Below the pieces are notes generated by a model that saw only the letters and a program-made list of their open reading frames with translations, was not told where the DNA came from and did no database searches. From an uncultured Chloroflexia bacterium (lineage in GTDB: Bacteria > Chloroflexota > Limnocylindria > Limnocylindrales > CSP1-4): a DNA stretch of 64,000 nucleotides. Shown in pieces: positions 18,577 to 40,907 of this stretch. The position numbers were made by a program, and so were the translations under genes. The stretch covers positions 1,888-65,887 of the forward strand of contig CAWDHT010000010.1 in assembly GCA_963802165.1 (NCBI GenBank), written 5' to 3'. Each line of letters opens with the position of its first letter. Positions within the stretch are counted from its first letter, which is position 1.

Positions 18577-18609
18577 CGACGCGGATCGTCCGCGTCGTCG
18601 CCCCGCGCC

Positions 18610-19739
18610 TCAGCGGCCGGCCTGTAGCGCCTCCGCGGCCAGCGCCACCGTCGCGACGACGGCCACCGCCACGAGCGCCCCGCCGCCCGCCGCAGCCCAC
18701 GCAAGCCCCAGCGGCCACCCGATCGCCAGGAGTGCCACGCCTCCGTTGAGCGCGAGCAGGCGGGGCGTCGCGAACCTGCCCAGGATCGTGCGCTGGAGCC
18801 CGTGCTGCACCGGGGTGCCGGGGCCGATCGATGGCAGCAGGTGGGTCCACGACGCCAGCAGCACCTGCACGATCCAGCCGATGGTGAGCGGCGCCCCCAC
18901 GACCGCCGTCGACCACGCCTCGGGCGCGCGTGCCGTACCGGATCAGCAGCCCGGAGGCCAACGAGACGCCGACGACGAACCACGCCACCCCGGCCAGCAG
19001 TCCGACGGACGCGAACCGGTGCCAGCCGGGATCGGACGTCCAGCGGCCCCGCGCGCGCACGACCTGCGCCGCCTCCAGTGCCGTCGCCAGGGCTCCGACC
19101 ATCACGAGCGCCGCTCCCCCACCGGCAACCAGCCCGGAACCCAGGAGCAGGCCCAGGACGACGATCGGCGTCCCGATCGCGATCCCCAGCACGGCCAGCG
19201 CGGCGCTCCGGCGCGGGACGATCCGCCCGCCCAGGACGGTCGGCAGGAAGTGGAGCAGCGTCGCGACGATGACCAGCGACACGAACCCGATGACGTTCGT
19301 CCAGGCGTGCGCGGGCCGCAGCTGCCCCCACCGCTCGAGGATCGGTGCCCAGCCCGCGACGAAGAGCATGCCGAGCACGCCGCCCACGGCCACGTTGACC
19401 AGCGCCAGCGTGTAGCCGAGCGAGACGAGCGGGCGCCGGACCATGAGTCCCTGTCCGGCCGGACGCCCGGACCGCGAGCGCGAGCCAGAGGATCCCGGTC
19501 AGGTAGATCCAACCGCCGGCGACAGGCGCCCACGCCCAGGCCTCGCCGGGCGCGATGCCCCGCACCGCGACGAGCGCCGCGCCCGCGGCCACGAACCCGA
19601 CCGCCGCCTTGCGCAGGCGCGACGGCGCCGGCGCGCCCGCCGCGAGCGCCGCGACGAAGAACGGCATGACGCCGGCGATCGCCGTGGACGCGCCTCCGGC
19701 GAGCGCCAGGTGGAGCGGCAGCCACGGCGACAGGACGGC
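18610..19739 (-). CDS. Polytopic membrane protein (~375 aa) split over three reading frames; possibly NnrS-like
   Basis: Hydrophobic segments continue from frame C (19739-19457) to frame A (19444-~18920) to frame B (18900-18610), which implies two 1-nt indels. The family assignment is tentative and rests only on genomic context (between Rrf2 and nirK). Confidence 0.4.
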
Positions 19740-20018
19740 GCGCCCCGAGGCCGCCCGCGAGGGCGGCCAGCAGCGCCGCGACCAGGAAGCCCGCGGCCAC
19801 GGTGACCGACGACCATCGCGATCCGGCGGTCGTCGGCGCGTCGGGGCCCGGGCTGGAACGGGCCGCCCGCCGGGCGCGGAGCCGTGGGCGCCAGCGGGAC
19901 GGCGAGCGGCGGCCGGGAGGGCGGCTCCCGCGGTGGGATCGCGGTCGGCCTCCCGGCGCCTCGGCATCGGTCGCGGCGATACGGGCCGGGTGGCCCCCGG
20001 GCAACGGGTCGCTTGTCA

Positions 20019-20060
20019 TCTGCTCAAATACATACTAAGTTAGTGATAGTTAGACCCGCA
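20019..20060. promoter_or_regulatory. AT-rich island upstream of nirK carrying an 11-bp inverted repeat ACTAAGTTAGT (20034-20044)
   Basis: A sharp AT-rich stretch (…ctgctcaaatacatactaagttagtgatagttag…) in an otherwise ~70% GC context. Candidate promoter/operator. Confidence 0.25.
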
Positions 20061-20159
20061 CACCGCCCCGGGCGCGGACCCCGGCATCGGGATGCCGGAC
20101 CGCCGGCAGCGGGACCCGGACGGGGAACGACCGGGTCATAGCGAAAGGACCCAGAGGAC

Positions 20160-21571
20160 ATGCGTCTCCATCGCCTCGCAGTCACCCTTGTCGCTGGTCG
20201 CCCTCACCGCCACGGCCTGCACGTCGGCCAAGGCCCCGGGCTGGACGTTCCCAGCGGCCACCCCTGCGGGTGCCCCCGCCTCGCGGCCCCGGCGCCGGCG
20301 TCGACAAGCCCGCCGGCACCCCGGGCGCCGCCCAGGCCGCGACGACGGGCACGATCGAGATCGAGAGCTTCGACCTGGGCTTCAAGCCGGCGGCGATCAC
20401 CGTCCCGGCGGCGGGCACGTACGAGGTCAGGTTCGTCAACACGGGCTCGATCATGCATGACGTCACCTTCGCCGATGGCACCGTGATCGCAGCCGAGGCC
20501 GGGCAGACCGCGACCGGCAGCGTGGCGATCCCCGCGGACGGCCTCGGGTTCATCTGCGCCGTCCCGGGCCACAAGGACGCTGGCATGGCCGGCGCGGTCG
20601 GCGTCGCAGGCGGATCGATGGCCGGGATGGGCGAGCAGCCCGCCGCATCGTCGGCACCGGGCGCCGCTGCAGCTTCGACCCCGGTCGAGGACCCGAATGC
20701 GCCGCCCTATGCGTTGCGCGACCCGAAGGCCCCCGCGCTGGCGGAGGGCACCGTGCATGACTTCGACTTCCCGATCATCGAGAAGGACATCACCGTCGCC
20801 ACGGGGTTCGTGGTCCACGCGTGGACGTTCGGCGGCACCGTGCCCGGCCCCGTGATCCGCGTGAAGGTGGGTGACACGGTCAACGTGAACCTCACCAACA
20901 CGGGCGAGATGAGCCACTCGATCGACTTCCACGCGTCCGAGACTGCCATGAACCACCAGATGGTGGAGATCAAGCCGGGCGGGACGTTCACCTACACCTA
21001 CAAGGCCAACTATGCCGGCGTCTGGATGTACCACTGCGGCACCGCGCCGACGCTCCACCACATCGCGAACGGCATGTACGGCATGGTCATCGTGGAGCCC
21101 AAGGAGGGCCTGCCCAAGGTCGACCAGGAGTTCGCCTTCGTCCAGGGCGAGTGGTACCTGGGTGCACAGGGCGAGCCGTCCGACTACGCCAAGGCGAACC
21201 AGACCGCCGCCGCCCCCGACTTCGTGGTCTTCAACGGCATCGCCAACCAGTACAAGGACAACCCCGTCGCCATCGAGCCGGGCAAGCCCGTCCGGGTCTT
21301 CGTCCTCAACGCGGGGCCCAGCATGGACAACTCCTACCACGTGGTGGGTACGATCTTCGACCAGGTCGTGAAGGAGGGTGTCTGGCTCAAGCGCGGCAAC
21401 GACGGAAACTGGGGCTCGCAGGCCGTCGACCTGGCGCCGGCGCAGGGGGCGATCATCGAGTTCACCGCGGCCGAAGACGGCATGTACCCGTTCGTCACCC
21501 ACGCCTTCAACCTCGTGACCCACGGCGCCATCGGGATCTTCTCCGCAGGCGACGGGGACCCACTCAACTAG
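20160..21571 (+). CDS. nirK: Copper-containing nitrite reductase NirK with an N-terminal cupredoxin (plastocyanin/azurin-like) domain and a lipoprotein-type signal peptide; N-terminus frameshifted
   Basis: NirK ligand motifs (HSIDFHA, MYHCGTAPTLHHIANGMYG) plus an extra type-1 Cu site (FICAVPGHKDAGMAG) in the N-terminal domain. A lipobox peptide (PLSLVALTATAC) is encoded in a different frame at 20170-20240, which implies an indel near 20240-20290. Confidence 0.85.
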
Positions 21572-21643
21572 CGTTCCCCTCCCGTGCACTCACCGGCGGT
21601 CGCCTTCCCCGGGCGGCCGCCGGTGAACCCGTGCCCTGCAGGG

Positions 21644-22084
21644 TCAGCGCCGGAGCGGGTCCGGGATGTCGACCTCCTCGCCGCGCCACATCGAGACCTC
21701 CTCCGTGGACAGGCGGCCGAAGTAGTTGAGGAAGTGGGCGCCGTGCCGCTCCAGGACCGCGGCGGCCTCGAGCATCCGGTCGCGGTCCGCGACGTGGACG
21801 GCAATCACCGCGCGCCCGTCCAGGAGCGCGTGCTCGTACACGAGGAAGTCCGGCGTCTGGTCCATCAGCGTGAACTGGAGCGCTCGGACGAGGCGCGAGA
21901 AGGCGTTCGGATGCTGCCCGAGACGGCCGAGTCGGTCGCGTCCCTCGTCCCCCACCAGCATGACCACCTCGGACGGTTCGAACGCCGCCCCCGTCAGGGC
22001 ATCGACGGCCCCGGCGGCATCCGTCGGGACGTCGATGACGCCGAGGAGACGGTTCGTGGGGTAGGTGATCATGCGACGGGTCAC
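21644..22084 (-). CDS. Hypothetical protein (146 aa)
   Basis: ORF convergent with nirK. No recognisable motif. Confidence 0.45.
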   Translation of the reverse strand: MTRRMITYPTNRLLGVIDVPTDAAGAVDALTGAAFEPSEVVMLVGDEGRDRLGRLGQHPNAFSRLVRALQFTLMDQTPDFLVYEHALLDGRAVIAVHVADRDRMLEAAAVLERHGAHFLNYFGRLSTEEVSMWRGEEVDIPDPLRR

Positions 22085-22096
22085 GTGACGCCCTCG

Positions 22097-23335: not shown

Positions 23336-23358
23336 CGCGTTCGATGGTAGGGGGCGCG

Positions 23359-23889: not shown

Positions 23890-23994
23890 CGGCGCAGGGT
23901 AACGCGGCCGGCCGTGCGGGGCTCGCGGCTGTCGCCTGAGCGGACATGCTGATCCATGGGTGCGCCCGGGAGATGAGGACGTCACCATTGCGGC

Positions 23995-24875
23995 ATGAGG
24001 CTGCTTGTTCGAGGGATGATCGTCGCCGCGCTCGTGGCGGGGACGGCGGTGGCGGCACGGACCGTGGCGCGAACCCTGGCCCCCTGGCGCGTACCCGCGG
24101 ACAGCCCCGCAGCCTTCCTGCGACGCGGCCGCGCGCCGGCCACCCGCACCCTCGTGGTGTGTGCAGGTGACAGCTTCACCCACGGCGTCATGAGCGCGGA
24201 CTACCTGGAGCTGCTTCGCGCCCGCCCCGGAAGCGACGGCTTCGAGTTCGTGAACGCCGGGATCAACGGCAACCTTGCGTGGAACGTCCTGCAGCGCCTG
24301 GACGACGTGGTCGCGTCCCGCCCGGATGCCGTGACGCTCCTGGTCGGGACCAACGACGTCCTCGCCACGCTTGGCCCGCCGTGGGAGCCGATGTACCGGC
24401 GCCAGCAGCACATCCCGGTGACGCCGACCCTGGCCTGGTACGTCGAGAACGTCCGCGGGATCATCGATCGCCTGCGAGCCGAGACCGGGGCCCGGCTGGC
24501 GATCCTGGACCTGCCGCCGCTCGGGAGAGGACCTCGACAGCGCGCTCAATGACACGGTCCGCGAGTACAACACGGCCCTGCGGGACGAGGCTGTCGGCGG
24601 CCAGGCGTCCCGGTCCTGCCGCTCCACGACCGCCTCGTCGCGCTGCTCCCGGAGGACCACACGCCACCACCCTTCGAGGGACGCCGGGACCTCATGGGCT
24701 CGGCGATCGCACGGCACCTGGTGCTGCGAACGTCGTGGAACGAGATCTCCGATGCCCACGGCCTGGCGCTGCTGACCGACCACGTCCACCTCAGCGACCG
24801 GGCCGCGGCCGTGGTCGCGGAGCTGATCGCGGACTGGCTGGCGCCCGAGAGGACCCGCTCACAACCCCAGCGTGA
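23995..24875 (+). CDS. SGNH/GDSL hydrolase, broken by two apparent frameshifts
   Basis: GDS block (VVCAGDSFTHG) in frame 1, GEDLDSALNDTVREYNTALRDEAV in frame 2 (~24527-24600) and the DHVHLS (DxxH) block in frame 3. The position of the stop is uncertain. Confidence 0.65.
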
Positions 24876-26225: not shown

Positions 26226-26332
26226 CAGGTGCAGGTCCTCGTGATCTTGGTTGCCGGGGTCACTGTGCCGTCCGTTCGTGACGCGCCCGTGACGGGTCGC
26301 TTCTCCATGGCTCGAGGGCGGGCGGCAGTAGG

Positions 26333-27334
26333 ATGCACCCCATGACCGACGAGACGTCACAGCCCGCCCCCCACGTCCCCACCCTGATGACGGTGCACGC
26401 CCACCCCGACGACGAGGTCATCGGCACTGGCGGCACCATGGCGAAAGCCGTGATCGAGGGCCGCCGGGTGGTGCTCATCACCTGCACCCGCGGCGAGATG
26501 GGCGACATCGTGGTCCCCGAGCTGGACACCCCGGACAACCATCGCCGCCTGGGCGAGATCCGCGCCGCCGAGCTGGAGCAGGCGATGGCCGCCCTTGGCG
26601 TCACCGAGTGGGAGAACCTGGGCTACCACGACTCGGACATGATGGGCCGCCCGGGAAACCGCGACCCGCGGACCTTCTGGCAGGCGAACCTCGACGAGGC
26701 GATCGGGCGCCTGGTCTGGATGGTGCGGCGATACCGGCCGGACGTCATGACCACCTACAACGACTTCGGCGGGTACGGGCACCCGGACCATATCCGGACG
26801 CATCTCGTGGCCGTCGGCGCGTTCGCCCGCGCGGGCGACCCGGCCTGGTACCCGGAGCAGCTGGCGCCCGAGCACGGCGGGACGGGCGCGGCCGAGGACG
26901 AGGGGGGCCTCGCCCCGTGGGCACCGGCCAAGCTCTACGAGCAGGCGATCCCGGCCTCGGTCCGCACGGCGCTCCAGGAGCGGATGGAGGCCATCGGCGA
27001 GCGCTCCTTCTGGAGCCCGCCGGAGGACGCCACCCCGGAGCAGCTCGCCGAGTTCGAGGCGTTCGCCGCCCGGATGCTCGTCCCGGACGAGACGGTCACG
27101 GCCTGGGTGGACGTGTCGGCGCAGCTCGACCAGCGCTGGGAGGCATTCCGCGCCCACGTCACCCAGATCAGCGGCGAGAACCCGTTCGTGCGCTTCGGCC
27201 GCGATGCATGGGCGGAGTTCTGGTCCCGGGAGGCGTTCGTGCGCCGCGAGACGCGTGTCCCGGCCCCCGACCACGAGGACGACCTGTTCGCGGGACTGGA
27301 CGACGCGGTGCCCGGTCCGTACGGCTGGGGCTGA
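26333..27334 (+). CDS. PIG-L/LmbE-family N-acetylglucosaminyl deacetylase (MshB/Mca-like)
   Basis: VHAHPDDE zinc-binding motif and …GGYGHPDHIRTH…. Confidence 0.85.
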   Translation: MHPMTDETSQPAPHVPTLMTVHAHPDDEVIGTGGTMAKAVIEGRRVVLITCTRGEMGDIVVPELDTPDNHRRLGEIRAAELEQAMAALGVTEWENLGYHDSDMMGRPGNRDPRTFWQANLDEAIGRLVWMVRRYRPDVMTTYNDFGGYGHPDHIRTHLVAVGAFARAGDPAWYPEQLAPEHGGTGAAEDEGGLAPWAPAKLYEQAIPASVRTALQERMEAIGERSFWSPPEDATPEQLAEFEAFAARMLVPDETVTAWVDVSAQLDQRWEAFRAHVTQISGENPFVRFGRDAWAEFWSREAFVRRETRVPAPDHEDDLFAGLDDAVPGPYGWG

Positions 27335-27698: not shown

Positions 27699-29515
27699 CT
27701 ACCAGTCCAGCAGGCCCTTCGACGCCTTCCAGACCTGGTCCATCACGAACTTGCCGGATCCCGCCGGGTCCATGAAGTTCGGCTGGGCCTTGCCCAGGAT
27801 CAGGTGCGGTCGCATCCGGGCCTGGGCCAGCTCCTTGCCGCGGAACGTGAGCTCCAGGGTCAGGCCCTCCATCGTGTACTCGGACCACGTCTGGTCGAAC
27901 ACGAAGTTGCCCAGCGCGTACCAGATGGGCTTGCCCTTGTAGACCTCCATGCCCTCGGCCCAGTGGGGGTGGTTGCCGATGACGAGGTCAGCGCCCGCGT
28001 CGATGGCCGCCTGGCCCAGCCGCCGCTGCGCCGCCGACGGGGCCGCCCGGTACTCCACGCCCCAGTGCGGGAACACGACGACGACGTCGGCGCCCGCCTT
28101 GCGTGCGGCCTTGATGTCGGCCTTGAGCCCCTTGACGGTCATCCGGGCGCTGCCCGGGGTATCCGCGTCCGCGTTGTAGACACGCGCGATCTGGTCATAG
28201 CCAAGGAGCCCGACGGTCACGTCCCCGGCCTTGAGCAGGGTCGCCTTGTGAGCCGCGGTCGCGTTCTTGCCCAGGCCGCCGTGTGCCAGGCCGTAGCGGT
28301 CCAGGTTCTTCATCGTCTGGAGCATGCCCTTGCGCCCGGCGTCACCGATGTGGTTGTTGGCGAGGGACACCCAGTCCAGGCCGGCATCCACCAGGCCCTT
28401 GATGTGCTTGGGGTTGGCCGAGAACACCGTGCCCTTGCCGTGCCAGCGGAACGCGTCGGGAGCGGGGTTCTCGAAGTTGGCGATGGCGATGTCGGCGCTC
28501 GAGATGAGCTCGCGGACGATGCCCGCGTTCCCGGTCCGCTTCGTGTAGGGCAGGTCCCAGCCCATGGGCGAGCAGTCCTTGCAGCGTCCGGTGATCTCCA
28601 CGGTTCCGCCGTCGAACGGGAAGTCGCGCCGCGCTTGCTGCCCTGGATCGCGAGCGAGACGCCCCGGTCCAGCAGGATGTCGCCACCGGCAACCATGGTC
28701 CACGCATCGCCCGGGTCATACGCAGGTGTCTCCGGTCCGGGGAGGCGGGCCGTCAGCGGCCACTTGGCGAGGCTCTTGACCCGACTCGTGCCGAACAGGC
28801 TCTTGCCACCCCACGCGAGCGCCCGCACGGACGGTCCGACCTGGTCCGCGCGCAGGAACGCGACGCGGCCACGGTTGGCGGCGAGGTTCTCCGCAAGCGC
28901 CTCCGCGGACGCGACGGTGACCAGGCGCTTGCCCAGGTCGTCGCGCGTCAGGCCGAGGGACGCAAGGATGGCGTCCGCGTCGTCCTCGACCAGGACCAGG
29001 GCCTTGAACGGCGAGCCGCCGGTCGCAAGCTCCTCGATGTCGGTGGCGCGGACTCCGGACCGGGCGGATCGGAAGTGGGTGACCGGAACGATCGCGACGT
29101 CGGCCTCGGCGAGGAGGGGCGCGGACTCCTCGGGTTCGGGCTCCTCGGGCGCGGGCGCCTCGCCTTCATCGTCCGGAGGCGGCTCCGTGGGGCTCGCGGC
29201 ACCGGGATCAGTGCGATCGGCTGGAGCGGTCCGCTCGGCAGCGGCGACGTCGGACACTCCCGGAGCGTCCGCGGCAGCAGACCCGGTGGGGCCCGGCCCG
29301 CCGCCGGACACGCCGGACAGGATCCCGCCGCCGAACCCCAGGCCGATCACCAGCACCAGCGCGACAACGCCGAGCGCCACCAGGACCGCGGAGCTGCGCG
29401 AGCCACCCGGCCCGGATCCCCCCGCGTCGCGGCGGGCCGGTCCTTGAGATACCGGGTGGGCGCCGCTCCGCGGGTTCGCCTGGCGCGGGTCGTACTGGGG
29501 GTCGCGGACGCTCAC
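27699..29515 (-). CDS. Membrane-anchored CapA-family (PGA_cap metallophosphatase-like) protein with one apparent frameshift
   Basis: An N-terminal TM and Pro/Glu linker then WTMVAGGDILLDRGVS in the upstream frame (28310..29515). The remainder of the CapA domain (…LANNHIGDAGRKG…VVFPHWGVEY…GNHPHWAEGME…) continues in the 27699..28703 frame. The junction lies at ~28620-28640. Confidence 0.7.
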
Positions 29516-29759: not shown

Positions 29760-30024
29760 TCAGTCGCCGCTGAAGTTGAAGGCGCCGATCACCATGCGGA
29801 CGACGATGGCGATGGCCGTCGCGAACAGGGCCGAGACCCAGATGCTCGTGATGCCATCCGTCCCGATGACGGTGTCCAGGAGCCAGCCGAGGATGACCGC
29901 GGCGATGAGGCCGATGGCGAGGCTGGGCATCCAGCCGCGCAGCGTGCGCCCTCCCGCGATGACACCCGGAGACGAGCCCGGCGATCAGGCCGACGACGAT
30001 CCAGCCGACAAACGTGAGGTCCAT
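29760..30024 (-). CDS. GlsB/YeaQ/YmgE-family small membrane protein, frameshifted after about codon 21
   Basis: MDLTFVGWIVVGLIAGLVSG…, then out of frame. The neighbouring frame continues IAGGRTLRGWMPSLAIGLIAAVILGWLLDTVIG…FNFSGD*, the canonical remainder of the family. Confidence 0.6.
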
Positions 30025-30142
30025 GGGCGGACTATGGCATATCGCACGACGCGCGCATCACAGATTCGGGTGAGGCGGCAGCGATGCGGTCGCTCGACAT
30101 CCCGCGTGCGGTGGTGGCGCTCGCACGGGACGGAGGAGTGGA

Positions 30143-30219
30143 TGGCGGACCCGACCGGATTCGAACCGGCGATCTCCAGCGTGACAGGCTGGCATGTTGG
30201 GCCGCTACACCACGGGTCC
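30143..30219 (-). tRNA. tRNA-Asp (anticodon GTC)
   Basis: Manual cloverleaf: acceptor GGACCCG/CGGGTCC, D-arm with GG, anticodon stem CCAGC/GCTGG with loop CTGTCAC, T-arm GCCGG-TTCGAAT-CCGGT, and an encoded CCA. Confidence 0.88.
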
Positions 30220-30445
30220 GCGACCGGTGGCGGATGATAGCAGGGACCCCCCGATGCCGCCACCTGCGCGGAGCGTACACGATCGTGGCGGGCCGACCCT
30301 CGCCGTATACTCCGCGTGCCTGCCGCACCCGTCCCCGGGCCGCCGCCGTGAGGCGGCACGCGACCGGCGCCTCGAACCGGATCCACGCTCCGACGTCGTC
30401 GCCTCGTCCGCGCCGCCGCCGACCCCAGGACGGAGGACATCCATG

Positions 30446-31650
30446 ACGCTCAGCGCTTCCCCGGCGGCGAGGTCGCACGCCCGCGAGCGCTGGCACGTCC
30501 TCGCGGACCGCCTGAGGACGATCCGTCCTGAGGCCCTGGCCAAGGGCGCCATCGGGATCACCCTCATCGCGGTGTCGGTGCAGCTGGTCGTGGCCTCGTG
30601 GCCGGCGCTGTTGCCGTTCGTCGTCGGCGCGGTGCTGGCCTACGCCGTCCTGCCCCTCGCGAACCGTCTCGACAGGTTCATGCCGCGCGTCCTGGCCGCG
30701 CTCCTCGCGGAGCTCGTGGCGGTGGCGCTGCTGGTGGGCGTGGTGGCGGTCGTCGTGCCCCCGCTCATCGGTGGCATCGGCACCGTGGCGGACAAGCTTC
30801 CGAACCCCGAGGCGATCCGCGCCGCGGTCGCCGACCTGCAGGCCCAGATCGGCAGCCATCCCCGAGCCAATGCGGACGATCGTCCTTGCCCTCATGTCGG
30901 AGGTCACGACCAATCTGCAGGGCGCCCTCAGCGGGGTGTCGGCAAAGGCCGGCGAGTTGATCACGAGCCAGCTGCTGGGCATCTTCGGGACGCTGAGCAC
31001 GGTGCTGGGGCTGCTCGTGATCCCGACCTGGATCCTCACGCTCGTCGCCGACGAGCGTGCCGTCAAGCAGCGCGGCGCCCGCCTGTTCCCCGAGGCGATC
31101 CGGGCCGATGTGGCCGCACTGTTCCGGATCGCGGACCGGGTGGCGTCGACGTACCTCCGTGTCCGGGTGCTGCTCGCCGTCGCCACCGGCCTGTTCGTCT
31201 ACGCGGGCATCTCGATCGCGAATCAGCTGGGTATCGGCGATGGCCGGTACGCGGTTGCCGCGGCCGTGCTGCTCGGCGCCCTGCAGCTCATCCCGGAGCT
31301 CGGTTTCCTGCTCGGCTTCGTGGCGCTCCTGATCCCGCTCGCCATCGGCGGGCCGGAGGCCGCCATCGCGTTCGCGCTGATCTACATCGGTTCCGTGAAG
31401 GCGGCGTCGACGCTGCTCGAAGGCAGGCTGAGCCGCGGCGTCCTCGATGTCCATCCCGGCGTGCTCATCCCCGGCATCGTGGTCCTCAGCCAGTTCGGAG
31501 CAATCTGGCTCTTCGCGGCCGCCCCGATCATGGCGATCGTCCGGGATCTCGTGCGCTACGCCAACGCCCGGCTTGCCGATCCCCCCGGTGCCGCAGGCGT
31601 CCTGCCCGGCGAGAAGGTGCGGAGCGCCAGGACCAGCAACCGCGCGGGCA
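30446..31650 (+). CDS. AI-2E family (PerM/YhhT) transporter, copy 1, with one apparent frameshift near 30855; 3' end uncertain
   Basis: The N-terminal 140 aa are in the frame starting at 30446. The remainder (…LSGVSAKAGELITSQLLGIFGTLSTVLGLLVIPTWI…IYIGSVKAASTLLEG…) is in the 30771 frame. No stop separates it from the downstream SPFH gene in that frame. Confidence 0.62.
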
Positions 31651-31955
31651 ACCCGGTTCCCTCCGTGTACCGGGCTCCCGCGCCACCTGCCCCGGCCGCA
31701 CGACCGGCATCTGCGAGCGCGAGCAGCCCGACGGCGGCACTCGCCGCGATGTCGGCGGCCACCGTAGCCGCCGTCGCATCCACCGTGTCAGGCGGCCCGC
31801 GTTCCCCGGCCGGCCCGCCAGCACGCGTCGCCCGCCCGGTCCTTGGCCCAGGCCCCCGTCCCGGCCGTCTATGCCGCCGTCCTGCGCAGGACCGCGGCCC
31901 GCCCGCCCAGCGTCAGCCCGAGGAGCACCCAGCCGTGACCGACGATCCCGCCCGC

Positions 31956-33131
31956 ATGACGGACATGTCGTCCGAGTCCGCGCCAACGGACGGCTCATCG
32001 GTGCTGGCCCAGGCGTACATCCAGCTCACGGAGGCCGAGGCCACCCCGCTCGACGCCGCGGATGCCCTCGAGCGACGCGACCAGTACGGTCGCGTGCCGA
32101 TCGTGGTGCGAGTCCGCCGCCAGCCGCCGATCAACCCGATCTGGATCCTGCTCGCGATCGGCCTGGCCGCCTCCGGGCTGTTCCTGCCGCTGGCCGCGGC
32201 CCTGCGGGCGATGATCATCGTGGCGGCGGTCGTCGCCGTGATCGTCGGGATCATCTCGCGGCTGTTCATCCGCGTTCCGCCCGGTTCCGTCGGCCTCGTC
32301 GTCAAGTCCGGCCGGCACGACCGCGTCCTCACGTCCGGAAACCGGCGCGTCAGCCCCATCGTCGCCCTGTCCCACCTGGTGACGACGCGCGAGATCGCCT
32401 TCGACGTCCCGGTCAGCGAGGTTCGCTCGGCGGACGGCGTCGGCGTGGCGGTGGACGTGCTCCTCACGCTGCGGATCGCGGACCCGGTCAAGTTCGCCTA
32501 CGCGATCACGCCCGGCGACGCCGACCAGTTCGTGCAGGCGGCGTGCCAGGACGCGGTCCGGACGCTGGTTCGCGGCATCGAGGCCATGTCCACGCTCGAT
32601 CTCAACTCGACGCAGTCGGACTCGCTGCGGCAGGTCATCGACCCCAGGCTCGACGCCTACGGGATCGACGTCAGCAACGTCGCGTTCACGCGCGTCACCC
32701 TGCCGTTCGGCACTCACCGACTCGCTCGAGGCGCGTCGGCTGGCGTCGCTCCAGCTCGCCGAGCAGGCCGAGACCTCGCTCCTCGACAAGCGTCGCCTCG
32801 CCGACCAGGCCGCACTCGTCTCCCAGGAGGCCCAATCGCGGCGATCTGCCGTGGAGTACGAGGCCGCGGCCGAGGCCCTCCGGCTGGCGATGCTCGAGGA
32901 GCGGATCGCGGCCAACCCGAACGCCGCGCGTTACGACCTGGAGGTCTCCCGGATCCGCGTCGCCGAGCAGCTCGCCGGCAACAGCCGGGCCGTGGTGTCG
33001 CTGGGGGCGACGGACCTCATGTCCAGCCTGCTGACGGCGCGCGAGGCCGTGGTCGCGAACGCCGCTGCCGATGCAGCCGATGTGGCGGAATGGCCGCCAA
33101 GACGACCGGCGCCGAAGTCAGGCCGGCCTGA
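31956..33131 (+). CDS. SPFH/band-7 (stomatin/HflK-like) membrane protein with at least two apparent frameshifts
   Basis: TM segment then an SPFH core (…VKSGRHDRVLTSGNRRVSPIVALSHLVTTREIAFDVPVSEV…VLLTLRIADPVKFAY…). The coiled-coil tail continues in a second frame from ~32705 (…EARRLASLQLAEQAE…) and probably returns to the first frame near 33090 to stop at 33131. Confidence 0.6.
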   Translation: MTDMSSESAPTDGSSVLAQAYIQLTEAEATPLDAADALERRDQYGRVPIVVRVRRQPPINPIWILLAIGLAASGLFLPLAAALRAMIIVAAVVAVIVGIISRLFIRVPPGSVGLVVKSGRHDRVLTSGNRRVSPIVALSHLVTTREIAFDVPVSEVRSADGVGVAVDVLLTLRIADPVKFAYAITPGDADQFVQAACQDAVRTLVRGIEAMSTLDLNSTQSDSLRQVIDPRLDAYGIDVSNVAFTRVTLPFGTHRLARGASAGVAPARRAGRDLAPRQASPRRPGRTRLPGGPIAAICRGVRGRGRGPPAGDARGADRGQPERRALRPGGLPDPRRRAARRQQPGRGVAGGDGPHVQPADGARGRGRERRCRCSRCGGMAAKTTGAEVRPA

Positions 33132-33139
33132 GCGATCCG

Positions 33140-34365
33140 ATGACCGACGGGCCGAAGCCGGGCGAGTCGAGCGCGATGCCCGAGTCCCGGCGCGCCTCCG
33201 ACCCGGGCACCCCTGGGGCAGGCCCAGCGCCCGTTGTCGTCCCGGGCGCCGGCGACTCGGGCGGAGGCTCGGGTTCGCGGGACCCGCATCCGGGCTCGCC
33301 CCTGTTCGGGCCGCTGGTCCCGCTCGCCGCCATCGTCCTCGTGCTCGTCGGTGCGCTCGCGCTGCGCGAGGTCGCGACCATCCTCGTGCCTGTGGTGTTC
33401 GGCCTGTTCCTCGCGCTCGTCGCCTGGCCCATCGTCGGCATCCTGGAGCGGCGCGGTGCCCGCCACGCCATCGCCCTCACCGCCGCGCTGATGGTCGTCC
33501 TCGCGATCGTGCTGGTCGCGGCGGGATCCTCGCGCTGTCCGTCGCGGAGCTCGTGCTCCAGGTGCCCAAGTACGAGGGACGCCTGCGCGAGCAGATCCAG
33601 CTGCTGCAGGACCTCCTCGCGCAGTTCGGCGTCACGACAGACCCGGGTGCCCTCCTGGCGCTCATCAAGCCGGAGCAGATCGTGTCGATCGTCCGGCCGG
33701 TGGCGTCTGCCCTGTCGGGGGTCGGTCTCACGGTCTTCGTGCTCACGTTCACGATGATCTACGCCCTGTTCGGGGCCTCGTCGCTCCAGGCGCGCGCCCA
33801 GCAGGCGTTTGGCGAGCGGCACGCACTGCTCGTGGGCATCGAGCAGTTCGGCGTGGATCTCCGCCGTTACCTGCTGGTGCGGGCGCAGCTCGGCGTCTTC
33901 GCGGCGGTCCTCGCGTTCGTCCTGCTCCTGGTCCTCGGTGTGCCGTTCGCGGCGCTGTGGGCGTTCCTGGTGTTCGCGGCCAGCTTCATCCCCAACATCG
34001 GCACCTTCATCGCCGTCATCCCGCCGACGGTCATGGCGTTCCTGTCCGGCGGCCTCGCCCCGGCGGTGGCGGTGATCGTGGGCTATACGCTCATCAACTT
34101 CGCCCAGGATCACTTCCTGCAGCCGGTGATGATGGGCTCTGAGCTCAACCTCAGCCCGCTGGTCGTGTTCATCTCCGTCCTGGTGTGGGCATGGATCCTC
34201 GGGGCCGCGGGCGCGCTGCTCGCCGTCCCGCTTACCGTCGGGCTTGTGGCGATCCTGGAGGCCTACCCGGCGTCGCGCGACATGGCGGCGCTTCTGCGCA
34301 ACACGATCGAACCGCCACCCGGCAGCACGCCGGACGACGACGCCTTCACCGCGCCGCCCGACTGA
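33140..34365 (+). CDS. AI-2E family transporter, copy 2, with one apparent frameshift near 33525
   Basis: The N-terminus (…LVPLAAIVLVLVGALALREVATILVPVVFGLFLALVAWPIVG…) is in the 33071 frame. The C-terminal two thirds (…FIPNIGTFIAVIPPTV…LSPLVVFISVLVWAWILGAAGALLAVPLT…) are in the 32851 frame, ending at 34365. Confidence 0.65.
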
Positions 34366-34409
34366 CCCGCGCATTCGCCGCAGGGCCGGGGGACGCGTGG
34401 TGCGGCGGT

Positions 34410-34925
34410 TCAGGCCTCCGCCGCGGCCTCGGTCTCGATCTCGTCAGCGGCAGCCGCGACCTCGGCCTCGACCTCCTCCGGAACCTCGTGCGTCTCGGGG
34501 GTCCCGCCCAGCTCGGCAAGCTTGGCCGCGACGTTGGCCGCCCGGTCGTCGGCGACGAGCACGCCCACGGCGGCCTTGCCACCGGTCAGCTCGGCGGCGA
34601 TTCGGTCGCTGTCAGCGGACTTGAGGCCAAGGCCCTTGCGGTGGATCGCACCGGCGATGCCGCCCAGGACCGGCAGGCCGATCACTCCGATCGGGCCGGT
34701 GGCAAACAGGATCGCCATCGCGGCGCCGACCCCGATGCCCTTGGGGATCGTGCGGCGGCCGAGCTTGCGCGTCTTGACCTGGCCGTCCTCGTCGAGCACG
34801 AGCACGCCGATCGCGTTGAGCTTGATGTCGTAGTACAGCTCGTCCCAGGCCTTGAGCTCCTCGACGGCAGCGTCGGCGGCGGCCTCGTCGGCGAAGAACG
34901 CGAGAACGACATGCTTCCTGGCCAT
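34410..34925 (-). CDS. Membrane-associated hypothetical protein (DUF1269-like glycine-zipper protein)
   Basis: 171 aa. MARKHVVLAFFADEAAADAAVEEL… followed by Gly-rich TM segments and an acidic tail. Confidence 0.45.
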   Translation of the reverse strand: MARKHVVLAFFADEAAADAAVEELKAWDELYYDIKLNAIGVLVLDEDGQVKTRKLGRRTIPKGIGVGAAMAILFATGPIGVIGLPVLGGIAGAIHRKGLGLKSADSDRIAAELTGGKAAVGVLVADDRAANVAAKLAELGGTPETHEVPEEVEAEVAAAADEIETEAAAEA

Positions 34926-35068
34926 GAAGGGAACCTCGGTAGGGGTTGGGAGTCACCGGACGTGCGCGAGGCGCACCGACGGCGAGTATCGCCCACCGGC
35001 GATCCGGGAGCATCATGGAGCCGAATGGTCGCCAGGAGGGCGCCCGCCCCCGACACCCAGGAGGTCCC

Positions 35069-35263: not shown

Positions 35264-35308
35264 CCCAACCGCGCCGCACCCGACCAGTAGGCCCGACGGA
35301 GACTCGCC

Positions 35309-36544: not shown

Positions 36545-36617
36545 AGGCAGCGCACCGAGGTCGCGTCCCTGGAGGCCTCGCGCCCTCGCACGCGACCCGC
36601 GCTATGCTCGCCCGGCG

Positions 36618-37742
36618 ATGCCTCCCGTGATCGATCTCCGCTCCGACACCGTCACGCACCCCACCGAGGCCATGCGCCGCGCGATGGCCTCCGCCCGCGT
36701 CGGGGACGACGTCTTCGGCGACGACCCCACGGTCAACGAGCTGGAGGCCCGCGCCGCCGCGCTGCTGGGCAAGGAGGCCGGCCTGTTCGTGGCCAGCGGG
36801 ACGATGGGCAACCTCGTCTCGCTGATGGCCCACCTGCCGCGCGGCTACGAGGCCATCGCCGGCGAGATGACCCACACGGTGATGGACGAGGCGGGCGGCC
36901 ATGCCGTCGTCGTCGGCGCGACGATCCGCGCGCTCCGCGAGCGTGCCGACGGGACCCTCGACCCGGGCGAGATCGAGGGAGCGTTCCGGGACTCGACCGA
37001 CGTCCACGAGCCCATCACCGGCCTGGTCATCCTCGAGAACACGCACGCGCACTCGGGTGGTCAGCCGCTGCCGATCGCGTACCTGGAACGCGTCGCGGTC
37101 ATCGCGCACGATCGCGGTGTGCCCCTCCACGTCGACGGCGCCCGCTTCTTCAACGCGGCCATCGCGCTGGGCGTCGCCCCCGCCGCGCTCGCCGCACCCG
37201 CCGATACCGTGACCTTCTGCCTCTCGAAGGGACTGTCGGCGCCCATCGGCTCCGTCGTGGTCGGGCCAGCGCCGTTCATCGCCCGCGCCCGCCGCGCCCG
37301 CAAGCTCCTCGGCGGCGGCATGCGCCAGGTGGGCGTGCTGGCTGCCGCCGGTCTCGTGGCGCTGGACGACGGCCCGGACGGGACCGTCGCCCGCCTCGCC
37401 GAGGACCACGCCAACGCGCGCCGTCTCGCCGAGGGCCTGGCGGAGCTCACCGGCATCCGCTCCCCCGGCGGCATCGCCCAGCCGGGCGAGGACGGGCCGC
37501 TGGACCCGGCGCGCGCCGCGACCAACTTCGTCCTGTTCCGGGTCGCCCGCGACCGCACGGCCTTCCTCGCCGCCCTCGAGGCGAGAGGCGTGCTGATGGT
37601 GTCCTATCCCCACGGCCAGATCCGCGCCGTCACGCACCTCGGGGTGACGGCCGACGACGTCGACAGGGTGGTGGCCGCGGCCGCCGAGGCCCTGCGCGCA
37701 ACCGACCCGAGCCCAGCGGCGATGGTGGCCGGCACCGCCTGA
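36618..37742 (+). CDS. ltaE: Low-specificity L-threonine aldolase
   Basis: 374 aa. [12 protein letters not shown]…, a GTMGN motif and a PLP-lysine region (…[15 protein letters not shown]…). Confidence 0.85.
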
Positions 37743-37797
37743 GGCGCCCAACGACCACACCGGGGCGCCGCCCAGACCCCGCGGCGCCGGAGGAACC

Positions 37798-39479
37798 ATG
37801 ACGACACTCCTCGGCGGCCAGGCATTCCCTCGACCGGCGGCAGCGCCCGACGCTGGACCGCTCGACGACTCGCCTCTACGACCTCGTCGAGACCCGCGTC
37901 CGACGCCTGTTCACCGACAACCCGATCATGGCCACCTACTTCGGGATCCACAGCGAGGACCACCGCCTGGGCGACGCCGGCCGGGATGCCGTCGAGCACG
38001 AGATCGTCTCGGACAAGGCCCACCTCGCCGCCGTCGAGGCGCTCGACCCGGCCGGGCTGTCCGCCGGCGCGCGGTTCGAACGCGACCTGGAGCTCCACAA
38101 CGTCCGCCTCGCGCTGTTCGACGCTGACGCGGTCCGCCGCTGGGAGCGACGCTCGCAGGCCGCCGGTGACATCGGTGACGCCGTGTTCGCGCTGTTCGCC
38201 CGTGGAGCCGCGCCCCTGGAGGAGCGGATCGAGCGCATCGCGGACCGACTCGAGGGCGTGCCGGCGTTCCTCGCGGGGGCTCACAGCCGGGCGGTCGGAC
38301 CCCAGGTGGGCCTGTGGCAGAAGGTGGAGCTGCGGTACGCCAAGGACCTGCCGGGCCTCTTCGCCGAGGTGCGGGAGGCCGCGGAGGAGGTCCTGGAACC
38401 CCGAGAGCTGACGCGGCTGGACCAGGCGATCCACGTCGCCCGAACGGCCCTCGACGGACCACATCGCGTGGGTGGACGGGACGCTGGCGACCGCGACCGA
38501 GGATTGGCCGCTGGGCCGCGAGCGCTACGACGAGCTGGTCCGGCTGCGCGCCTTCGGGGACCTGGACGCGGACACGATCCTGGAGATCGGCTGGGACCAG
38601 CTCCGTACGAACACCGAGGCGCGCCGTGCCGCCGCCCGCGAGCTGGACCCCGACGCGGACCTGCCGTCCGTCATCGAGCGCCTCAAGGCGGACCATCCGG
38701 CCACCTTCGAGGACGCCCTCGAGGGCTACAAGGACGCGATGCGCCGCTCGCGCGCCTACCTCATCGAGCACGACATCGTCACGATCCCGGACGACGAGGT
38801 CATCGACGTGATCGCCACGCCGGAGTACCTGCGCAGCGTCATGCCGTTCGCGGCCTACTTCTCGCCGGCCCGCTTCGACGCCGACCAGCGGGGCATCTAC
38901 GTCGTCACGCCGGCCGTCGACAACGACCCCAACGCGATGCTCGAGCACTACTACGCCTCGATCTCGAACACCAGCATCCACGAGGCGTACCCGGGCCACC
39001 ACCTCCAGCTCGCGGTGGCCGACAAGCACCCGAGCCTGACCCGGATGCTCACCGACGCCCCCGAGTTCGTCGAGGGCTGGGGCATGTACTCCGAGCAGAT
39101 GATGCGCGAGGAGGGCTTCGACGCCGGGCCTGCCTTCCGCACGGCGATGTACACAGATGCGATCTGGCGCTCCTGCCGGATCATCCTGGACGTGCGCATG
39201 CACCGCGGCGAGCTGACGCCCGAGGAGGCGACCGACTTCCTCGTGGAGCACACCTCGTTCGAGACGGCCAACGCCCGCTCCGAGGTCCGGCGCTACACCT
39301 ACACGCCGGGCTACCAGCTGTCCTACCTGCTGGGCAAGGTGCTGATCCTGGGCATGCGTGAGGACGAGAGGCGCCGCCGCGGCGCCGACTTCAGCCTCAA
39401 GGCCTTCCACGACACGCTGCTGCGCAACGGCTCCCTGCCGATCAGCTTCCACCGCCGCATCCTCCAGGGCGAGGGCTGA
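37798..39479 (+). CDS. DUF885-family protein with two apparent frameshifts
   Basis: HEAYPGHHLQ motif and …YTYTPGYQLSYLLG… at the C-terminus (38472..39479 frame). The middle is in the 37928 frame. The N-terminus (…LYDLVETRVRRLFTDNPIMATYFG…) shares the 37928 frame but is separated from the ATG at 37798 by an indel near 37830. The second junction is near 38465. Confidence 0.7.
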
Positions 39480-39485
39480 GGGCAG

Positions 39486-40187
39486 GTGGACGTCATCCCG
39501 GCGATCGACCTGCGGGGTGGGCGATCCCGCGTCGTGTACTGGCCCGGCGCCGCGGCCGGCACGGGCACCCCGACCGATCGCCCGGAGCGGATCGCGGAGC
39601 AGTTCGTGGGCATGGGCGCCCGGATCCTGCACCTCGTGGACTTCGACGGCGCCCAGCAGGCGCGCCCGGTCAACCTCGAGGCCGTCGGCGCCGTGGCGGC
39701 GCGGGTCGCCGTCCCGCTCCAGCTCGCGGGTGGGCTCGAGGAGGCGGACCACGTGCGGCTCGCCTTCGCGGCGGGAGCCACGCGGGTGGTCCTGTCCGTC
39801 GCCATCGCCGAGCGCCCCGACGCGCTCCGCGCGTGCCTGTCCGTGGCGGGCGACTGGCTCGCCGTCGGGCTGGACCCGCGGCCCGAACGGCTGGCCGCCT
39901 TCCCCTGGCAACGCACGACCCCGCCAACCCTCGATACCCTTGTGGAGGAGCTGGTCGCCGGCGGCGTGCGCCGCCTCGTGCTGAGCCACGGCGGCTCATC
40001 GCCGGACACCGGGCTCCTCGCTGCGCTCCGGCGCCGCCACGAGGTGGAGGTGCTGGTGGCCGGCGGCGTGACCGATCTCGACGCCGTGCGCCGGCTGCGC
40101 GACGCCGGCGTGACCGGCCTCATCCTCGGAGAGGCGCTCCTCTCCGGGTCCATCGACTTCCCCCGTGCCCTGGAGACAGCCGCATGA
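39486..40187 (+). CDS. HisA/HisF-family (βα)8-barrel protein outside any his operon
   Basis: MDVIPAIDLRGGRSRVV… N-terminus and Gly-rich phosphate-binding ends. 233 aa. Its stop overlaps the next ATG (ATGA). Confidence 0.7.
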   Translation: MDVIPAIDLRGGRSRVVYWPGAAAGTGTPTDRPERIAEQFVGMGARILHLVDFDGAQQARPVNLEAVGAVAARVAVPLQLAGGLEEADHVRLAFAAGATRVVLSVAIAERPDALRACLSVAGDWLAVGLDPRPERLAAFPWQRTTPPTLDTLVEELVAGGVRRLVLSHGGSSPDTGLLAALRRRHEVEVLVAGGVTDLDAVRRLRDAGVTGLILGEALLSGSIDFPRALETAA

Positions 40188-40907
40188 TCCGCCACCGAAT
40201 CCTCAAGGGGCTCCTCGCCGCGCTGGCCGTGCCCGTCCTGCTCGCCGCCTGCTCGTCCGGCGGCAGCTCGGCCCCCCTACCCACGATCCCCTCCCAGGGC
40301 CCGGCCACCCCGACGGCTGCGGCCAGCCACCCAGGCCCGACGTACCCGCCCGGGTGCCCCACGGAGCAGCCGGACGCGCTGGCTGCCGGTGAGACGCGGA
40401 CGGTCACGATCACGACCGACAAGGGCGACATCGAGCTTGAAGATCGACGGCCGACCTGTCGCCGATCGCGACCGGCAACTTCGTGACCCTCGCCGAGTGC
40501 GGCTACTACGACGGCGTGGTGTTCCACCGCCTCGTGCCCGGATTCGTCATCCAGGGCGGCGACGGCCAGTTCGGCCGCGTGCCCAGACGTGATCCCGGAG
40601 CTCGTCGGCTCGGGCGGCCCGCCCTACAACATCCAGGACGAGCCCGTCACCGCGAAGTACGGGCGCGGCACCGTCGCCATGGCGCGCTCCTGCGCAACCG
40701 AACTCCGTCGGCTCCCAGTTCTTCATCGTCCTCGACGACGCAGCCGAGCCGGCGCTCGCGAGCGCCAACACCTACCAGATCATCGGCGAGGTCACCGCCG
40801 GCATGGACGTCGTGGACGCCATCGCCGCCATGCCCAACAGCGGCCCGCCGAACAACGCCGCCGTCGATCCGCTGCCCATGACCAAGGTCACTGTCAGCAA
40901 CCCATAG
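40184..40907 (+). pseudogene. Cyclophilin-type peptidyl-prolyl isomerase lipoprotein, broken by at least four frameshifts
   Basis: Lipoprotein signal (MIRHRILKGLLAALAVPVLLAAC) then cyclophilin blocks spread over four frames: …TITTDKGDIEL | …[35 protein letters not shown]… | …[34 protein letters not shown] | …[40 protein letters not shown]…, ending in a TAG at 40905. Confidence 0.65.

Follow-up and report, generated by a model that had tools for sequence, protein, structure and literature searches.

Genes split between reading frames may record the decay of a genome or errors in its assembly, and the 64-kb stretch of DNA analyzed here (the window), which comes from a population of soil bacteria (Limnocylindria, Chloroflexota), raises the question of which of the two is being read. 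A sequence-only reading had reported a cluster of genes with apparent 1-nt frameshifts at 18610-40907 beside intact long neighbors, and had weighed motif-specific long-read consensus errors against ongoing pseudogenisation. We placed the breaks by a GC3-based frame path, translations, tblastn and blastn against 80 related loci, and frameshift-aware protein-to-DNA alignment. The cluster proved to be present and understated: about 31 frame-breaking 1-nt indels were counted, ~19 between 18.6 and 41 kb, 7 at 7.2-8.7 kb in a surface-protein gene with a tandem repeat, 3 in a serine recombinase gene and 2-3 at the phage-like end. This amounts to ~0.5 per kb for the window as a whole and 0.85 per kb for the interval 18.6-41 kb, where the following genes are broken.

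18598..19914, minus strand: conserved polytopic membrane protein; four +1 (~18930, 19448-19452, 19740-19741, 19810-19813), from homologue alignments
20160..21571, plus strand: nirK-like multicopper oxidase with N-terminal cupredoxin domain and lipoprotein signal; +1 at 20191 and 20283-20284, both in the N-terminal 45 codons
23995..24859, plus strand: SGNH/GDSL hydrolase; +1 at 24522-24526 and -1 at 24597-24603, in a gene covered by only two reference loci
27699..29500, minus strand: CapA / PGA_cap protein; -1 at 28623-28635 (~28627), frame change in 65 of 66 loci
29763..30050, minus strand: YeaQ/GlsB-like small membrane protein; frame switch fitting a +1 near 29975-29985, from its own translations only
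30440..31700, plus strand: AI-2E family transporter #1; +1 at 30855, A[G]CC versus ACC or GCC in relatives
31950..33131, plus strand: SPFH/Band 7 protein; +1 at 32705-32707, 12 of 12 loci
33100..34365, plus strand: AI-2E family transporter #2; -1 at 33522-33528
37790..39479, plus strand: DUF885 protein, 559 aa when repaired; +1 at 37867-37873 (45 of 49 loci) and 38455-38459 (49 of 52 loci)
40280..40907, plus strand: lipoprotein cyclophilin 1 (Pro_isomerase); four +1 (40433-40439, 40443-40455, 40579-40603, 40691-40697)

Alignment placed all the breaks that had been proposed for SGNH (two), CapA, both AI-2E transporters and DUF885 (two), and the nirK N-terminus is split as described, by two +1 events (20191, 20284). 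The membrane protein, credited with two breaks, is indeed broken, but by four +1 events; the repaired protein gave no match in a Pfam search. For SPFH, where at least two breaks had been claimed, the one at 32706 stood, and the second, near 33092 in the low-complexity tail, is a possible but weak candidate. The YeaQ split was recovered near 29978 from the gene's own translations; its Pfam search returned nothing significant, and the gene is absent from the relatives compared. In SGNH, the shifted stretch runs into a stop at 24550. Cyclophilin 1, said to carry at least four breaks against none in its tandem paralogue, has up to four shifts in one 210-aa protein. Further broken genes lie beyond 41 kb.

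44001..45524, minus strand: serine recombinase (Resolvase domain); three +1 (44795-44797, 44877-44879, 44936-44938), from a single reference locus
58400..59667, plus strand: lipoprotein; probable single frame switch at ~59110-59200, from two overlapping ORFs and a GC3 phase switch only
60126..61132, minus strand: N-acetylmuramoyl-L-alanine amidase (endolysin-like); frame switches at ~60842 (+1) and ~60372 (-1 or +2), from the frame path

The anticipated recombinase split resolves into events at 44796, 44878 and 44936, placed against its sole reference (L014), which is ~80% identical and whose name suggests a short-read MAG. The two switches expected in the amidase were likewise found, and joining its pieces yields an Amidase_2 match that spans the first junction at 29.2 bits (cut-off 26), whereas the separate pieces give no match. 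For the lipoprotein, the split reported at 58418-59667 is retained as probable on weak evidence, a GC3 phase switch at ~59.1-59.2 kb. Against these broken genes stand intact controls.

40940..41428, plus strand: cyclophilin 2; intact, directly downstream of the four-times-broken cyclophilin 1
45820..48213, minus strand: Prim-Pol primase, 797 aa; intact, identified by Pfam
50047..55056, plus strand: Sacsin-like / NOV_C (DUF3883) protein, 1669 aa; intact, identified by Pfam

Mca, prfA, glyA and the ATP synthase genes are also unbroken, so that the earlier description of intact long neighbors holds, and Prim-Pol, the 1669-aa ORF, cyclophilin 2, Mca, prfA and glyA serve as controls. At the event rate of 18.6-41 kb, the 1669-aa ORF would escape any hit with P=0.014. 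The patchiness that had been remarked upon is statistically real: ten inter-event gaps are shorter than 150 nt versus 2.1 expected (P<5e-5), indicating clustering at the 100-nt scale, and events counted per 2-kb bin have a variance/mean ratio of 2.0 (P=0.001). As many as four indels fall in one short gene, three or four of them within 60-270 nt, and none in the 5-kb ORF. The events are also strongly directional, with +1 insertions making up 26 of the 31 and -1 deletions the other five (binomial P=2e-4).

Comparison with related genomes, which had been recommended as a check, found the indels in no relative whose alignment covers the sites. Over each compared site, these alignments agree on the same frame change among 80 GTDB loci (up to 85% nucleotide identity), a set comprising Nanopore-only MAGs and MAGs with contig names indicating short-read assembly. 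The repaired DUF885 protein also aligns with a further 80 contigs from JGI metagenomes, and the rows reaching both junction residues continue across them. On these alignments, the indels are private to the window sequence and common to none of ~160 related contigs; the collections searched contained no same-species sequence, the best being 95% identical in amino acids and 85% in nucleotides. After repair, single collinear and full-length Pfam matches run through the junctions (DUF885 1-527/532, Pro_isomerase 2-158/159, PGA_cap 1-255/255), as do those of both AI-2E copies, Band_7 and Lipase_GDSL. Lineage-invariant residues, defined by columns in which at least 90% of relatives agree, are kept at 97.6% (1030/1055) in broken genes versus 98.5% (1448/1470) in intact genes, and amino-acid disagreement with relatives shows no excess near the breaks. 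The repaired coding parts that were examined contain no internal stop codon: where inspected, for nirK and DUF885, the few stops counted in the alignments lie upstream of the start codons. No large deletion is evident against relatives.

The fraction of invariant columns within 7-12 nt of the indel sites is 0.22-0.23 versus 0.41 at random positions (P about 0.005-0.008), i.e., the indels favor segments in which the protein varies locally. Homopolymers at the sites match the background, the longest run within 4 nt having a mean length of 2.27 both there and at random positions, and a run of at least 4 lies near only one of the 22 sites examined. Break contexts are heterogeneous, and inspection by eye revealed no motif shared by a majority of them. 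Strings resembling CGAC or GATC are present in several of them. In unique, non-array regions it is often ambiguous which base was inserted, and at some clear sites (19448, 20191 and 37870) no relative has an allele corresponding to the extra base.

A more direct view of how such indels could arise comes from the surface-protein gene, whose seven indels fall outside 18610-40907 and thus extend the cluster beyond the limits first drawn for it. The sites below were defined by copy-by-copy comparison.

5431..9593, minus strand: large He_PIG / Big_9 / cadherin-like surface-protein gene; ~1,380 aa after repair, 7 frame segments, from frame path, translations and Pfam
6951-8957, minus strand: array of 7 near-identical 283-nt units (TRF; ~99% identical copies)
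8666..8668, minus strand: array site D, +1; TCA[C]GC versus TCAGC in other copies; again at 8099-8101 and 7252-7254
8424..8426, minus strand: array site C, +1; CGC versus GC elsewhere and CC in copy 8100-7820; again at 8141-8143
8016..8020, minus strand: array site A, -1; GCGGG versus GCCGGG or GCGGGG in other copies, a copy-variable column
7593..7595, minus strand: array site B, +1; GAT versus AT elsewhere and GT in the adjoining divergent copy

Copies are spaced by 283, 283, 284, 281, 283 and 283 nt, and the true unit would measure 282 nt (94 aa). Of the four distinct indel sites in the array, three coincide with the only three columns that vary by substitution (about 1e-4 by chance). Moreover, two insertion alleles consist of both variants concatenated, AT and GT becoming GAT (site B) and GC and CC becoming CGC (site C), and they occur in copies adjoining, or one copy away from, the single divergent copy. 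Alleles with both variants side by side are the expected product of a consensus drawn from a mixed read pile-up.

Taken together, the frame breaks very probably arose as errors in the consensus of a metagenome assembled from long reads, most likely Nanopore reads only, and not by mutation in the organism, as judged from sequence comparison. The long-read artefact, one of the two readings left open earlier, is thereby supported by indels that are private, +1-biased, clustered, similar to those of Nanopore-only MAG relatives and located on copy-variable array columns, and by broken genes that show no decay. Since the indels look like assembly errors, pseudogene calls in the window are not trustworthy. 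As to how the errors arise, we consider it somewhat probable that a polisher meeting a mixed pile-up at a column would write both bases (+1) or neither (-1). Such pile-ups could stem from co-assembled strains differing at the site or from mis-registered reads of neighboring tandem-repeat copies. Errors would then form short patches wherever the population or repeat varies, and stretches that are strongly conserved or carried by a single haplotype would remain free of them, a possible reason why the long mobile-element genes, the ATP synthase genes, prfA and glyA are intact. This retention of both alleles is demonstrated in the tandem array only; in unique regions, we infer strain heterogeneity as the cause. 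Consensus errors in strain-oblivious long-read assembly, where strains collapse or tandem-repeat copies are mis-registered, share with the window indels exactly on copy-differing columns, both variants in tandem, a patchy distribution and sites in locally variable segments. Strain collapse by long-read metagenome assemblers is documented (PMC13087279; PMC8302730), and the literature searched contained no description of a signature in which both alleles are emitted.

The link to sequencing technology is visible among the relatives themselves. MFD MAGs are Nanopore-only, assembled with Flye and given one round of Medaka polishing (PMC12313526). Across 696 kb of their loci, 115 frameshifts are private (86 are +1 and 29 are of the -1 type, the latter scored FS+2 by the aligner), versus 10 in 327 kb for loci labelled short-read by contig naming only (k141_, NODE_, scaffold), a rate ratio of 5.4 (P=2e-10). 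Textbook Nanopore errors are tied to homopolymers; the window and its MFD relatives differ from these in that most of their frameshifts are +1 and most lie away from long homopolymers, and those of loci L074, L073 and L067 are patchy. The window density is several times the MFD mean of 0.17 per kb, a figure from an insensitive scan, which picked up just 6 of the window events. Short-read assembly would not resolve a 2-kb array of near-identical 283-nt units within a 64-kb contig, and we infer that the window itself is a long-read assembly. ONT metagenome assemblies keep residual frameshift errors, notably in soil samples and at low coverage (PMC9262707; PMC13087279; PMC8302730). Like the residual errors of Nanopore-only (Flye and Medaka) metagenome assemblies, as measured by IDEEL-type truncated-protein tests, the breaks in the window split genes into adjacent ORFs in different frames and are private to one assembly. 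Such errors depend on technology and coverage, with soil datasets worst (PMC9262707; PMC13087279), and the MFD relatives share the private +1-biased frameshifts of the window.

Coverage could also act without any contribution from strains or copies, a few noisy reads leaving random residual indels that outlast polishing. We regard this as a doubtful explanation, albeit one with some substance: the window density of ~0.5-0.9 per kb exceeds the MFD average, ONT consensus quality is reported to depend on coverage, at ~40x or higher (PMC9262707), and the unmatched extra bases at several unique sites fit random noise. Local dips in depth could still give kb-scale patchiness, but random noise does not predict the tight 100-nt clustering, the coincidence with variable array columns, the preference for segments in which the protein varies locally or the lack of extra amino-acid changes near breaks. 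Systematic base-calling errors tied to homopolymers or a methylation motif, the specific mechanism first suggested, are very unlikely, with homopolymer lengths at background and, to the eye, no motif common to a majority of contexts. Recurrence of the TCA[C]GC insertion in three array copies and of another in two could suggest context dependence, as could the CGAC/GATC-like strings, yet mixed pile-ups common to near-identical copies explain the recurrence equally well. Methylation-linked Nanopore errors are mainly substitutions, unlike the +1 insertions seen here.

Genuine, ongoing loss of ~15 genes, with essential genes held by selection, is similarly improbable. The intact set includes the essential ATP synthase, prfA and glyA and the broken genes look accessory, which speaks against an artefact, as selection against real lesions in essential genes would give the same pattern; a very recent burst of real indels would also escape comparison with relatives this distant. 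Pseudogene-rich genomes such as those of Mycobacterium leprae and Sodalis glossinidius resemble the window in combining many frameshifted genes with intact essential ones. Real decay brings nonsense mutations, deletions and IS insertions beside frameshifts, relaxed amino-acid constraint and lesions common to related strains, and none of these other hallmarks was seen in the window: at least 24 frameshifts in unique genes come with no nonsense lesion in the inspected alignments and no large deletion versus relatives, and constraint is not relaxed. Single short genes struck independently three or four times within 60-270 nt, the presence and synteny of the affected genes in nearly all relatives, a signature ~5 times commoner in Nanopore-only than in short-read-named MAGs, and array alleles built from concatenated copy variants likewise argue against decay. 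Bacterial indels usually show deletion bias and repeat slippage, a pattern to which the +1 bias outside repeats runs counter. Restoration of the proteins by programmed ribosomal frameshifting or transcriptional slippage is effectively refuted: its sole favorable point is that downstream frames remain coding-like, against which stand contexts with no homopolymer tracts or obvious slippery sequence on inspection, the absence of a shift at any site from ~160 relatives, and cyclophilin 1 with its repeated shifts. We know of no precedent for so many recoding shifts. Separately, the 3' end of the serine recombinase gene overlaps tRNA-Arg at 43987-44062.

The Mca/LmbE-type deacetylase of the window (26333-27334) served as query and returned 80 syntenic loci among GTDB species representatives, all of them MAGs from the Chloroflexota class Limnocylindria. 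The closest, L001, is 95% identical at the amino acid level over the Mca/LmbE-type protein and 85% identical at the nucleotide level over 19 kb. Half of the loci stem from MFD-named MAGs, which are Nanopore-only, with Flye as the assembler and a single round of Medaka polishing (PMC12313526). The remaining loci carry contig names of the k141_, NODE_ or scaffold type, from which we take them to be short-read assemblies. Best identities to the window were 95% (amino acid) and 85% (nucleotide) in the GTDB scan and 86% in the JGI metagenome scan; a search of the protein database with Mca listed no match above 88% identity, and no same-species sequence was found among the protein collection, GTDB representatives and JGI metagenomes. 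Look-ups of the exact sequences of two intact proteins of the window, prfA and Mca, likewise gave no match.

Frame breaks were mapped by four methods: a Viterbi frame path that scores GC by codon position and penalises stops, tblastn searches of the window with ORFs from relatives, gapped blastn against every locus with retention of non-multiple-of-3 gaps common to all alignments, and a frameshift-aware protein-to-DNA dynamic programme. Since the window has a G+C content of 72% and long ORFs in all six frames, ORF lists were not used as a basis for breaks. Stop-to-stop ORFs of relatives were rejected as references because they include antisense and upstream stretches that create spurious frameshift calls at gene ends. 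Events were retained if their flanks aligned well and at least two loci supported them, the exception being three recombinase events with a single reference, the syntenic locus L014. All four methods agreed. The total is about 31 events, comprising 26 +1 insertions and 5 -1 deletions. Every gene that the sequence-only reading had named as broken was found to be so where testable by these methods, and the neighbours it had called intact are intact. The membrane protein is indeed broken, at four positions instead of the two proposed, and the limits drawn around the affected cluster (18610-40907) proved too narrow, as seven further indels lie outside them in a surface-protein gene. The affected genes are:

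5431-9593, minus strand, He_PIG/Big_9/cadherin-like surface-protein gene of 4.1 kb: seven frame segments, seven indels
Membrane protein: four breaks
nirK: two breaks
SGNH: two breaks
CapA: one break
YeaQ: break, from translations of the window only
AI-2E #1: one break
SPFH: one break and a weak second
AI-2E #2: one break
DUF885: two breaks
Cyclophilin: four breaks
Serine recombinase: three breaks
Lipoprotein: break, from a GC3 phase switch only
Amidase: break, from a Pfam match that appears only with the pieces joined

Each repaired protein gave one collinear, essentially full-length Pfam match across its junctions. For YeaQ, the lipoprotein, the amidase and the recombinase, raw ORF fragments had almost no Pfam match, and only sequences that had been repaired or joined gave useful results. 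Upstream of a 180-aa gene (34410-34952), at 34950-35040 on the minus strand, L001 has a 291-aa ORF whose additional 110 N-terminal aa can be matched to the window only by allowing +1 shifts at 34950 and about 35030. These shifts, seen against one reference and counted outside the approximately 31 events, may represent a further pair of indels, located in an N-terminal extension.

The indels are, in our judgement from sequence comparison, very probably not real mutations and would instead reflect a long-read consensus artefact. Real gene decay is opposed by five independent lines of evidence: the privacy of the indels, the constraint on the affected proteins, the event spectrum, the clumping of events and the link to sequencing technology. 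A comparison with related genomes, which the sequence-only reading had proposed as a check, showed the indels to be absent from relatives (80 GTDB loci, up to 85% nucleotide identity). At each site essentially all covering alignments concurred that the indel is private to the window (e.g. 65/66, 45/49 and 12/12), and no lesion is common to any relative among the syntenic loci. In addition, the repaired DUF885 protein could be aligned with 80 JGI metagenome contigs, and rows that reach the residues of both junctions run across them. The coding signal, followed as the GC3 frame path, is unbroken across the breaks. At columns with at least 90% identity among relatives, broken genes agree with the relatives at 1030/1055 positions (97.6%) and intact genes at 1448/1470 (98.5%), with no rise in disagreement near breaks. 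In the inspected nirK and DUF885 alignments, the counted stop codons lie upstream of the start codons.

The event spectrum points the same way. Gene decay is expected to leave a mixture of nonsense mutations, deletions and IS insertions, yet only 1-nt indels were found; it is likewise expected to relax amino acid constraint, yet no relaxation was found and invariant residues are retained. The +1 bias is strong (26 versus 5, P=2e-4). In bacteria, indels generally favour deletions and gather in repeats; a +1 bias without homopolymer association is an odd spectrum for biology. The mean longest homopolymer within 4 nt was 2.27 at break sites versus 2.27 at random positions, and the homopolymer hypothesis was rejected. 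Events are also clumped: ten inter-event gaps fall below 150 nt where 2.1 are expected, the 210-aa cyclophilin takes four hits and the recombinase three within 140 nt, while a 5-kb ORF (P=0.014) and a 10.3-kb stretch at 8669-18930 (P=1.6e-4) have none. The fraction of invariant columns around the sites is 0.22-0.23 versus 0.41 for randomly chosen sites (P about 0.005-0.008), placing the breaks in locally variable protein segments.

We scanned every related locus for private frameshifts by one common method. The Nanopore-only MFD loci contain 115 private frameshifts in 696 kb (0.165 per kb), of which 86 are +1 and 29 are -1 (scored FS+2 by the aligner), and loci with short-read-style contig names contain 10 in 327 kb (0.031 per kb), a rate ratio of 5.4 (P=2e-10) in which the short-read label is drawn from contig names. 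The MFD events lie mostly outside long homopolymers and are patchy, with dense, mostly +1 private patches in conserved genes of L074 (14.2-16.7 kb), L073 (14.7-17.4 kb) and L067 (18.0-18.9 kb). Several of the 10 events in short-read-named loci recur at one homologous position, about 12.65-12.87 kb, in loci of both kinds (L011, L044, L048, L005, L012, L025, L042, L047, L067 and others); this junction is probably a real gene-structure difference, e.g. adjacent genes fused or overlapping, rather than an error. Similarly dense private patches occur in L078, L058 and L031; like L074, L073 and L067, these belong to public Nanopore-only MAGs that are GTDB species representatives, so reference databases share the quality problem. 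Frameshift errors in Nanopore-only metagenome assemblies are a familiar problem (PMC9262707, PMC13087279, PMC8302730). In contrast to the textbook homopolymer description of Nanopore errors, those in the window are +1 insertions that fall at variable positions outside homopolymers. On whether Medaka or Flye writes +1 insertions at heterogeneous columns, we found only general statements in the literature.

A tandem array of seven 283-nt units (6951-8957) within the surface-protein gene serves as an internal control for how such errors may arise. The units are about 99% identical, and copies are spaced 283, 283, 284, 281, 283 and 283 nt apart where 282 is expected. The resolution of near-identical 283-nt units in a 2-kb array inside a 64-kb contig points to a long-read assembly. 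Only three columns across the unit vary by substitution, and three of the four distinct indel sites fall on them (chance about 1e-4). The four indel sites, each with the coordinates of one indel, are:

8016..8020, site A: GCCGGG, GCGGGG and GCGGG
7593..7595, site B: AT in five copies, GT in the divergent copy (8100-7820), GAT in the copy adjacent to it
8424..8426, site C: GC in four copies, CC in the divergent copy, CGC in the adjacent copy on its other side and in the copy beyond
8666..8668, site D

In GAT and in CGC, the two variants stand side by side in a single allele. Read from their sequence, such combined alleles in copies close to the divergent one look like the product of a consensus caller on a mixed pile-up, not of mutation.

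Because the array alleles carry both variants side by side, we propose a like failure for the unique regions: at positions that differ between co-assembled strains, the polisher would emit both bases, and sometimes neither. In the unique regions the support for this putative strain-heterogeneity mechanism is indirect, namely the clustering of events, some doublets and the variable segments in which the sites fall. At 30855 the window reads A[G]CC, against ACC or GCC in relatives; comparable doublets of the relatives' alternative bases occur at 19810, 40444 and 40591. The extra T at 19448, 20191 and 37870 corresponds to no relative's allele. At many unique sites the inserted base is ambiguous, with several equally good deletion positions, and at the 8 unambiguous sites no transition/transversion signal was seen by eye. 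Errors of this kind would need a mixed pile-up, so that a one-haplotype or strongly conserved segment would stay clean; both the differing state of the paired cyclophilin genes and the absence of breaks in the long genes of a tRNA-Arg-associated element (Prim-Pol and a 1669-aa protein) fit this requirement. Thin local coverage is a viable alternative or contributing cause.

Of the two explanations raised by the sequence-only reading, consensus error is supported, by the five lines against decay. The homopolymer- or motif-specific form in which it was cast is not supported: in the homopolymer part of the suggested context check, break sites were not in homopolymer runs, run length equalled background, and contexts were heterogeneous by inspection. 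The pseudogenisation alternative is not supported, given the retained constraint, the exclusively 1-nt indels, the technology dependence and the array alleles; the pattern is unlike reductive gene decay and does not match that of genuinely pseudogene-rich genomes. That essential genes are intact would also be expected if selection had acted on real mutations and spared them, but selection leaves the technology dependence, the array alleles and the lack of decay unexplained. Nor do the data fit programmed frameshifting: neither homopolymer tracts nor an obvious slippery sequence were seen around the breaks, and every orthologue is in frame. Real indels would imply a very recent, insertion-biased +1 burst outside repeats, in patches of about 100 nt, that disabled about 15 core genes of a wild Limnocylindria population before decay set in, the patches being e.g. 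tracts of error-prone synthesis. We consider this highly improbable.

On the artefact reading, any pseudogene, split-gene or missing-function call in the window would be an annotation artefact, a warning that applies to nirK, CapA, both AI-2E genes, SPFH, DUF885, the cyclophilin, the recombinase, the endolysin and the large adhesin. With frameshift-aware repair, the full-length proteins are recovered. The same signature (+1, outside homopolymers, patchy, at variable positions) is present in public Nanopore-only MAGs of Limnocylindria and would be missed by homopolymer-focused error checks. Metabolic or pseudogene inference from similar MAGs needs frameshift-aware gene calling or short-read polishing, and pseudogene calls in the window itself should not be relied on before frameshift-aware repair or such polishing. 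The main value of these results is this quality warning, their biological novelty being nil.

Several neighbouring features were also observed. The surface protein (5431-9593, minus strand) is secreted and about 1,380 aa long, with seven near-identical 94-aa repeats encoded by the array, whose approximately 99% nucleotide identity suggests very recent expansion or homogenisation. Directly upstream (9584-10654, minus strand) is a gene for a Pro/Thr/Lys-rich low-complexity protein with 6-36-nt repeats (9827-10071). A tRNA-Arg(CCG) at 43987-44062 (plus strand) overlaps the 3' end of the serine recombinase gene (44001), whose C-terminal '...ARPTGFEPATFGSGG' is read through the tRNA; the syntenic recombinase of L014 is 80% identical and has the same tRNA-derived C-terminal peptide. 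This arrangement suggests an integrative element inserted at tRNA-Arg, from 44001 to about 61400, with the following cargo alongside an Amidase_2 endolysin and small holin-like ORFs:

45820-48213, Prim-Pol
50047-55056, 1669-aa Sacsin-like/NOV_C (DUF3883) protein
55118-56323, ADP-ribosylglycohydrolase

The codon-position GC signal is weaker at 56.3-59.7 kb. The nirK-like multicopper oxidase (20160-21571, plus strand) has a lipoprotein signal peptide (LTATAC) and, at its N-terminus, an additional cupredoxin/plastocyanin-like domain, and an Rrf2-type regulator (18094-18576) is located upstream of its gene. Between the YeaQ-like gene and AI-2E #1, a tRNA-Asp(GTC) at 30143-30219 (minus strand) was called intact; just outside its 3' end, at 30139-30141, most relatives show a 1-nt difference.
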